Source of the DNA: a virus
Taxonomy: Duplodnaviria; Caudoviricetes
Length of the DNA: 64,000 nucleotides
Virus record (IMG/VR): IMGVR_UViG_2922715855_000002
Coordinates: 13,459-77,458 of that record
Strand: one strand, 5' to 3'
Translations under genes and position numbers: made by a program
Part shown: positions 24,032 through 24,129 of the stretch, in pieces
Numbering within the stretch: position 1 is the stretch's first letter
Layout: each line of letters opens with the position of its first letter
The notes under the pieces: model-generated
Seen by the model: the letters and a program-made list of their open reading frames with translations, nothing else
Told to the model about the DNA's origin: nothing
Database searches by the model: none

Positions 24032-24060
24032 TTTACAAATTTATGCAAGTGAGTTAAGAT
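24032..24060 (+). promoter_or_regulatory. SigA-type promoter for post-lysin sRNA
   Basis: TTTACA-17 nt-TAAGAT. Confidence 0.65.
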
Positions 24061-24066
24061 GACTAT

Positions 24067-24129
24067 ATCAAATCCAGAAGCACTGGTAAAAAGAGCCGTT
24101 AGGGAAGTACCCTAGCGGCTCCTTTTTTT
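24067..24129 (+). ncRNA. Candidate ~60-nt sRNA, copy in prophage 1
   Basis: Promoter, CAAAT-CCAG(AAGCA)CTGG-TAAAAA, 12-bp terminator, no ORF; homologous to 61174-61236. Confidence 0.6.

Follow-up and report, generated by a model that had tools for sequence, protein, structure and literature searches.

A candidate small-RNA gene family at the ends of prophage lysis operons in Paenibacillaceae

What is the short, promoter-led hairpin element that follows the endolysin gene in each of the two prophages carried by this 64,000-nucleotide stretch of viral DNA (hereafter the window)? The same succession of promoter, small hairpin and terminator stands behind both lysins, and the original prediction took it for a selected, independently promoted small RNA, perhaps one acting as antitoxin or antisense RNA on the convergent small genes that face it, or else a protein-sponging hairpin or an anti-defence RNA. 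From the letters of the window and of its relatives, each unit appears to belong to an undescribed phage small-RNA family. Our best reading, to which we would give a probability of about one half, is that each unit is an autonomous, prophage-expressed gene for a trans-acting sRNA, a "non-coding moron" of Paenibacillaceae temperate phages.

Both lysis cassettes lie on the plus strand and consist of a holin gene followed by an endolysin gene. In prophage 1 (cassette 22785–24028) Pfam recognizes a Phage_holin_4_1 holin at 22785–23234 and an Amidase_2 endolysin at 23234–24028, and in prophage 2 (cassette 60003–61161) a Phage_holin_4_1 holin at 60003–60431 and an Amidase_3 endolysin at 60424–61161, so that the two lysins are indeed of different families, as had been claimed. 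The tyrosine integrase gene of prophage 2 (26853–28037, minus strand) is found 2.7 kb past copy 1 of the unit, flanked by genes for XRE-type regulators at 26019–26243 and 28057–28440; the prophages thus stand in tandem, with the accessory region of copy 1 alone between them. Two further features of these prophages may be recorded here. A 38-bp element, comprising a GCGCC...GGCGC hairpin and then TATTATTATGCCC, occurs in both prophages, at 18910–18947 and at 59923–59960, in prophage 2 with the holin gene immediately past it, and is not complementary to the sRNA. Prophage 2 also carries a group I intron (Rfam RF00028, 51.1 bits, match at 50392–50745 within the region 48763–52345), which separates the ORFs 48763–49515 and 50843–52345, named by eye as the apparent halves of a tape-measure gene, and an ORF at 49565–50650 whose motifs, judged from the sequence, look GIY-YIG-like and which may encode a homing endonuclease.

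The anatomy of the two units, both on the plus strand, can be read directly from the sequence. In copy 1 the promoter (24032–24060) begins 4 nt past the TAA stop codon of the Amidase_2 lysin (24026–24028) and comprises a -35 box TTTACA (24032–24037), a 17-nt spacer and a -10 box TAAGAT (24055–24060). The predicted sRNA of about 60 nt, its start placed by promoter spacing, would extend from 24067 to 24129. It would contain the core CAAATCC (24069–24075), the hairpin CCAG/AAGCA/CTGG (24074–24086), an A-rich linker TAAAAAG between hairpin and terminator, the 12-bp terminator GAGCCGTTAGGG/AAGTA/CCCTAGCGGCTC (24093–24121) and a run of seven T residues (24123–24129; U7 in the RNA). In copy 2 the promoter (61139–61167) sits in the final codons of the Amidase_3 lysin, with a -35 box TTGACG (61139–61144), again a 17-nt spacer, and a -10 box TATATT (61162–61167) immediately past the TGA stop codon (61159–61161). 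The predicted sRNA, with AAAUCC at its 5' start, would run from 61174 to 61236, and here the core CAAATCC (61176–61182) is followed by the hairpin CCGA/AAGAA/TCGG (61181–61193), the linker UAAAAG, a 13-bp terminator (61199–61229) and its own run of seven T residues (61230–61236; U7 in the RNA). Direct reading bears out the order of promoter, CAAAT-hairpin, linker, terminator and T-run that had been described for both copies; the boxes and 17-nt spacers of the promoters hold as well, while the coordinates first given for the promoters were about 2 nt off.

Between them the two copies share the core AAAUCC-NN-[AAGNA]-NN-GGU. As the original prediction had noted from these two sequences, the two middle pairs of the small stem are swapped in a compensatory manner (A-U/G-C in one copy, G-C/A-U in the other), and a G-C pair of one terminator is replaced by A-U in the other. 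The terminators also differ at other positions. Folding returns the predicted structure for both RNAs, with energies of -27.6 kcal/mol (z = -5.5) for copy 1 and -30 kcal/mol (z = -5.3) for copy 2. The covariance model described below scores copy 1 at 58.5 bits (E = 1e-14, a rough value, as are all the model's E-values, owing to a shortened calibration) and copy 2 at 59.7 bits. The shared 23-nt pattern, motif CAAATCCNNAAGNANNGGTAAAA, has exactly two matches in the window and none in any of 100 shuffles, and both the pattern and the covariance-model search find just these two copies in the window's own genome. At each copy a single terminator, that of the unit, separates the lysin from the gene that comes next, and the lysis transcripts of prophages 1 and 2 would be expected to end at the terminators of copies 1 and 2, respectively.

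The unit does not belong to any family represented in Rfam. A gathering-threshold scan of the whole window against Rfam 15 returned nothing but the group I intron elsewhere, and an E-value scan of 23900–24400 and of five strong relatives gave chance-level matches only, such as those to STnc430 (22.7 vs 47 bits) and BSnc120 (27 vs 114 bits); this agrees with the earlier judgment that the RNA cannot be assigned to a known family. A literature search on Paenibacillus prophage sRNAs likewise found nothing relevant. Nor does the unit encode a peptide: neither the two copies nor their relatives hold a consistent ORF, the frames of the relatives being closed or lacking a start codon. Stop codons in relatives such as L020 leave no conserved reading frame, there is no conserved start codon, and a GUG after the hairpin is present in just 13 of the 89 distinct units. 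Coding potential was accordingly rejected, as the original prediction of a unit with no ORF had it.

How widespread is such a unit? A covariance model built from 20 units, together with a pattern scan, retrieved about 100 further units, 89 of them distinct. Pattern searching of 400 genomes of the same bacterial family, the Paenibacillaceae, shows the promoter-core-terminator unit in many genera. The covariance model, with each core verified by eye, places units in at least 29 of 151 sampled Paenibacillaceae genomes and in 14 of 19 genera, these genome samples being subsets in which related prophages are not mutually independent. Among viral contigs, an exact-pattern scan of IMG/VR found 67 with the core, about 55 of which hold the full unit. 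In the genome collection all matches that score as a full unit bear Paenibacillus titles (P. aceti, P. macerans, P. mellifer, P. puldeungensis and P. gansuensis are among them), and the pattern matches in other phyla are chance matches to the core alone. The other families of the class, sampled by 141 genomes, yielded no unit; there the best model matches reach at most 36 bits and are ordinary terminators without the core. Among the genomes sampled, then, the family is confined to Paenibacillaceae. A blastn search with four unit variants against 50,697 GenBank phage records, staphylococcal phages included, gave nothing relevant; with a database of that size, sequences as short as the units are beyond the reach of BLAST, and the result does not show that they are absent from cultured phages.

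The wider alignment allows the proposal of covarying stems to be examined well beyond the two copies from which it arose. Across 102 aligned units (89 distinct), standard pairs fill 96.8% of the cells, as against 76% in shuffles and at most 53% with the partners slid. Double changes are seen in 14 of the 16 pairs, and all 12 terminator pairs covary. Pair 12-18 of the hairpin is A-U in 63 and G-C in 24 distinct units, with two exceptions; because the retrieval pattern (R...Y) admitted all four combinations at these positions, this pair constitutes an unbiased test of covariation. The terminator pairs are frequently G-U, which is compatible with the plus strand only. The RNA structure is under selection, and the covariation that the original prediction had drawn from two sequences is clear in the larger set.

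Conservation of sequence, on the other hand, is concentrated at the 5' end. Near-invariance is seen in the lower two pairs of the hairpin (both C-G), in the U residues flanking it, in the AAA at the 5' start and at the third and fifth positions of the loop, and the segment AAAUCC-GR-[AAGNA]-YC-GGU is the same in unrelated phages from 14 genera, an invariance that is partly inflated in that many units were retrieved with a core-fixing pattern. Units retrieved by the model alone show the same core.

A related observation concerns the loop itself. A pentaloop of the class [AU]AG[ACU]A, closed by an R-Y pair, also caps the terminator in 21 of the 89 distinct units, that of copy 1 in the window (AAGUA) included, a point absent from the original prediction, and this class comprises 6 of the 1024 possible pentaloop sequences. 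In a longer variant of the unit an extra 5' hairpin bears the same loop (L053, L059, L124 and L105). The commonest loops are AAGCA and AAGAA, and the recurring element at the tip can be written G-R-[A-R-G-M-A]-Y-C, which we read as the feature that is recognized. That one or two further hairpins repeat the loop motif favors recognition of the hairpin itself. In one genus (g6; L045, L047, L048, L266, L269, L271 and L274–L276) the loop in most units is AGGAA or AGGCA in place of AAGCA, and the units number 5–8 per genome, often stand-alone and immediately past another terminator; this loop change may represent host-specific co-variation of the recognized loop.

The promoter is regular too. In 84% of the 89 units the best -35/-10 pair ends 5–11 nt before AAATCC, compared with 18% of shuffles, and the distance has its mode at 6 nt (47 of 89 units). 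A near-consensus sigma-A score is attained by 67 of the 89, compared with 6% of shuffles, and an extended TG -10 is present in many. The promoter is under selection, and its fixed position lends weight to the earlier proposal of an independently promoted RNA; that expression would be constitutive is suggested by promoter quality. The spacing predicts that transcription starts with the leading A of AAAUCC and that the RNA is 52–60 nt long. Units without an upstream ORF retain promoters of the TTGACA-17-TATAAT type (TTGACT-17-TATAAT in L064, for example), and it follows that the unit is autonomous.

The position of the unit is also non-random. By Pfam scan the upstream gene is an endolysin in 26 of 40 units and a holin in another 5, which makes 31 of 40 lysis genes. 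The hydrolases represent at least six catalytic types (Amidase_2, Amidase_3, Peptidase_M15_4/VanY, Glucosaminidase, GH25 and GH25+M23), and the holins, from cassettes in which the holin comes last, three families. At least 15 different C-terminal tails adjoin the unit. The upstream stop codon falls 13–43 nt ahead of the core, and the promoter therefore overlaps the end of the coding sequence.

Downstream no such regularity prevails. Across about 45 loci the genes past the unit are unrelated and on either strand, about half of them co-directional and half convergent, and they are of the accessory or defence-island type: HicB, DUF2290, DUF4145 and ResIII proteins and, as a weak match in the window, a TaqI-like protein. 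Extra copies of the unit are located within accessory regions, and in some prophages two or three units lie within 0.5–2.3 kb and bracket accessory genes (L109, L128, L124, L105). In the window, copy 1 faces a convergent ORF of 60 aa (24141–24323) and copy 2 a convergent, very basic ORF of 67 aa (61249–61452, minus strand) with no Pfam family, each of which stops 12–13 nt from the T-run. Kin of the 67-aa ORF, at 73–84% identity, are found beside units in six other loci (L049/L133, L053, L105, L109, L226); its product could be an RNA- or DNA-binding accessory protein. Past copy 2 there follow an ORF of 417 aa (61521–62774, minus strand) whose Pfam match to the TaqI restriction endonuclease, at E = 2.5e-5, falls just below the cut-off, and then a YolD-like gene (63009–63365). 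The region looks like a prophage defence or accessory hotspot.

Several more specific roles were considered and set aside. An att site is not indicated, in that no direct repeat links the regions past copies 1 and 2 save one 14-mer inside ORFs, and integrases are close to a unit in few loci only. Antisense pairing with the lysis cassettes would have at its best duplexes of merely -12 to -16 kcal/mol. A genome-wide scan for complementarity gave only noise, with no site common to the copy 1, copy 2 and consensus queries, and a search for host RNA mimicry found no sense-strand look-alike in host RNA genes at up to 4 mismatches. A sponge for CsrA/RsmA, which would carry GGA in its loops, does not fit the commonest loops, neither of which contains GGA; AGGAA and AGGCA are confined to the one genus mentioned above. 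The PyrR binding loop, ANTAR dual hairpins and lambda boxB each share few bases with the unit and have no Rfam support, and the same is true of the LicT RAT, SRP domain IV and the 23S 1067 loop. As a separate observation, the ORF 33161–34357 contains on the plus strand, at 34224–34253, a sense-strand look-alike of the copy 2 core, namely TCAAATCC, 9 nt, and then GAATCGGTAAAAA (an 8-mer and a 13-mer), which is in frame and far above chance expectation in 128 kb.

How might such a unit work? We envision that a near-consensus sigma-A promoter, overlapping or closely following the end of the last lysis gene, would start transcription at the first A of AAAUCC, giving an RNA with a 4-bp hairpin and an A-R-G-M-A pentaloop, and that the strong intrinsic terminator that ends the sRNA would also end the transcript of the late (lysis) operon. 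The short RNA alone would then be made in the lysogen, from the internal promoter, while in lytic growth after induction the same sequence would form the 3' end of the lysis mRNA; DapZ and MicL, among the type I 3'-UTR sRNAs, have a layout of this kind. It is the near-invariant 5' segment that would do the work, bound as a folded hairpin by one conserved factor of the host or of universal relevance to phages, and its action in trans could bear upon host physiology, lysis control or competing phages.

The nature of that factor is constrained by two considerations. Unrelated phages, among them the two that share this cell, have an identical core, and that core is restricted to a single bacterial family; a conserved factor of the host should therefore be the partner, which is probably host-determined. 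Since the tip is duplicated and the stem bases are invariant, recognition of a folded hairpin is favored and linear base pairing is less likely. Within the trans-acting reading we divide the chance roughly evenly between a protein and an RNA as partner; in mechanistic terms the factor would most likely be an RNA-binding protein that is titrated or recruited, and loop-loop or seed pairing with a conserved RNA would be less likely. A bolder version, in which the AAGNA hairpin is a phage decoy for one conserved Paenibacillaceae RNA-binding protein (perhaps a ribonuclease, a sensor in a defence system or a regulator of lysis timing), is an idea we regard as doubtful.

Several facts tell against the trans-acting sRNA: the complementarity and look-alike searches described above yielded no candidate partner, the second loop copy is present in only a quarter of the units, and a purely cis-acting 3'-end module would be expected to be coupled just as tightly to the lysis operon's end. 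In such a module the hairpin and the strong, often bidirectional terminator would serve to stabilize the lysis mRNA or its processing and to shield the lysis genes from the accessory region, the short RNA being a by-product or just keeping the terminator region transcribed. The 31 of 40 units directly behind the last lysis gene, with its stop codon so near the core, agree with this explanation, as do the A-tract before and the T-tract after the terminator, which in both window copies would make it bidirectional (the minus strands fold as well), and the convergent genes of the window that end just past the T-run. What the cis-acting explanation leaves unaccounted for is the unit that stands alone: without any upstream gene, consensus promoters and the invariant hairpin are retained. 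A by-product has no need of a promoter that is positionally conserved in 84% of units, and a hairpin that stabilizes mRNA requires neither an invariant sequence nor a duplicated loop. We consider a primarily cis-acting role unlikely, though it has a real chance of being correct. The idea with which the earlier work began, a cis-antisense regulator or type I antitoxin (of the RatA/SR4 kind) of the convergent small genes, draws on the fact that both window copies face convergent small ORFs whose transcripts would share the terminator hairpin, and on the recurrence of the 67-aa ORF in six loci. Over the wider set of about 45 loci, no downstream family is conserved save that one small cluster, half of the neighbors are co-directional, the stand-alone units persist, and the convergent proteins do not resemble hydrophobic type I toxin peptides, nor is there any other conserved hydrophobic toxin partner. 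With the convergent partner not conserved and any possible overlap limited to the variable terminator, outside the invariant 5' hairpin, the antisense or antitoxin proposal fails; it is largely refuted by the comparative data, and we hold it to be very improbable.

Two other explanations look to the accessory region that the unit borders. By analogy with the PeSL cassettes of T4-type phages, which provide a precedent (PMC2839356), the unit could act at the level of DNA, as a mobile regulatory cassette or recombination joint at the border of the accessory region that promotes the shuffling of modules. The bracketing of accessory genes by closely spaced units and the highly variable genes downstream, defence-island types among them, are consistent with this idea. 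The identical stretch shared between units is, however, some 18–22 bp, short for homologous exchange; the compensatory changes and strand-specific G-U pairs point to selection on RNA folding; and where the PeSL promoter drives the next gene, here a terminator follows the start and the next gene may be on either strand. We consider a DNA-level cassette improbable. An RNA decoy for defence systems is, to our minds, slightly more improbable still. Mimicry of CRISPR repeats by solitary repeat units, or Racr, is an anti-defence strategy in which RNA is the agent, and a unit that mimics such a repeat, or else the RNA ligand of some other defence, could disarm the host system. The unit is indeed a small promoter-driven hairpin RNA, borne on prophages beside accessory and defence-type genes, and its repeated tip suggests protein binding. 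Against this, a crude repeat scan found no CRISPR-like array in the window's genome, and the 22-nt core, with 1 mismatch allowed, never occurs more than four times per genome in the 400 family genomes, where it therefore does not form the repeat of an array. Nor does the sRNA resemble any known RNA ligand of a defence system in Rfam.

If the trans-acting sRNA is the correct reading, what would it mean? Small RNAs of Gram-positive phages are barely charted, and to our knowledge none has been described for the Paenibacillaceae, among which are the honey-bee pathogen P. larvae and many species that live in association with plants. With about 100 copies, covarying stems, a fixed promoter and at least 15 different lysis-gene ends, the unit can be annotated with confidence and lends itself to direct testing. 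Its invariance across unrelated phages points to a single conserved host partner, and its identity could show by what means prophages influence the timing of lysis, the physiology of the host or the phages that compete with them. Were the decoy version to prove true, the lysis operons of diverse temperate phages would all end in one shared RNA "key", which the prophage would express as well; the phage RNAs that titrate proteins would gain a new class, possibly an instance of a general "post-lysin sRNA" principle that takes in staphylococcal and enterobacterial phages too.

Several known systems resemble the unit in part. The morons of temperate phages lie between the lysis genes and attR as promoter-gene-terminator units, and the window units are like them in being autonomous from promoter to terminator, in standing past the lysis genes and in recurring in unrelated prophages. 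They differ in that their cargo would be a non-coding RNA rather than a protein, in being fused to the end of a lysis gene, and in supplying the terminator of the late operon. The enterobacterial type I 3'-UTR sRNAs DapZ and MicL have a promoter inside the 3' end of the upstream coding sequence, a terminator shared with the mRNA and a conserved, seed-like region immediately past the start site, and both are Hfq-dependent base-pairing regulators of core genes. The window units share with these the promoter in the 3' end of a coding sequence, the mRNA-shared terminator and the conserved region past the start; the RNA of the window is, on the other hand, phage-borne, predicted at about 55 nt, found in a Gram-positive host, and built around a conserved hairpin with a loop that recurs.

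The PeSL cassettes of T4-type phages have a stem-loop that overlaps or precedes a promoter, with a Shine-Dalgarno sequence and a gene following (Arbiol et al. 2010, PMC2839356). Like these, the units are repeated blocks of a strong sigma-70-type promoter and a terminator stem-loop in plastic regions of phage genomes. Unlike these, their terminator comes about 25 nt past the predicted start with the invariant mini-hairpin between, and the next gene is on either strand; a stem-loop at or upstream of a promoter that drives the next gene, the mark of a PeSL-type cassette, is not what the units contain.

The closest verified analog of the window units is srn_9342 from prophage phiNM2 of S. aureus Newman (Bronsard et al. 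2017, PMC5496865). This RNA has its mapped start inside the 3' end of the amidase coding sequence and its first 3' end at the amidase's rho-independent terminator; it exists in forms of about 130 and 260 nt, is encoded in a five-gene cluster with antisense partners, and in other strains is again found where amidase genes end, with no ORF and a function that these workers leave unknown (PMC5496865). In the window, too, a predicted promoter lies in or at the 3' end of the endolysin coding sequence on the same strand, and an RNA without an ORF would end at the intrinsic terminator of the lysin gene. The likeness is one of layout; the blastn search of 50,697 phage records returned no relevant match. 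The window family is shorter and belongs to another bacterial family, and an invariant pentaloop hairpin such as it possesses has not been described for srn_9342. What appears to be new is thus the RNA family, and what is already known, through srn_9342, is the layout of a prophage sRNA placed behind the lysin. Taken together, the staphylococcal RNA and the Paenibacillaceae units suggest that phages recurrently follow a design in which the lysis operon has an sRNA gene fused to its end.
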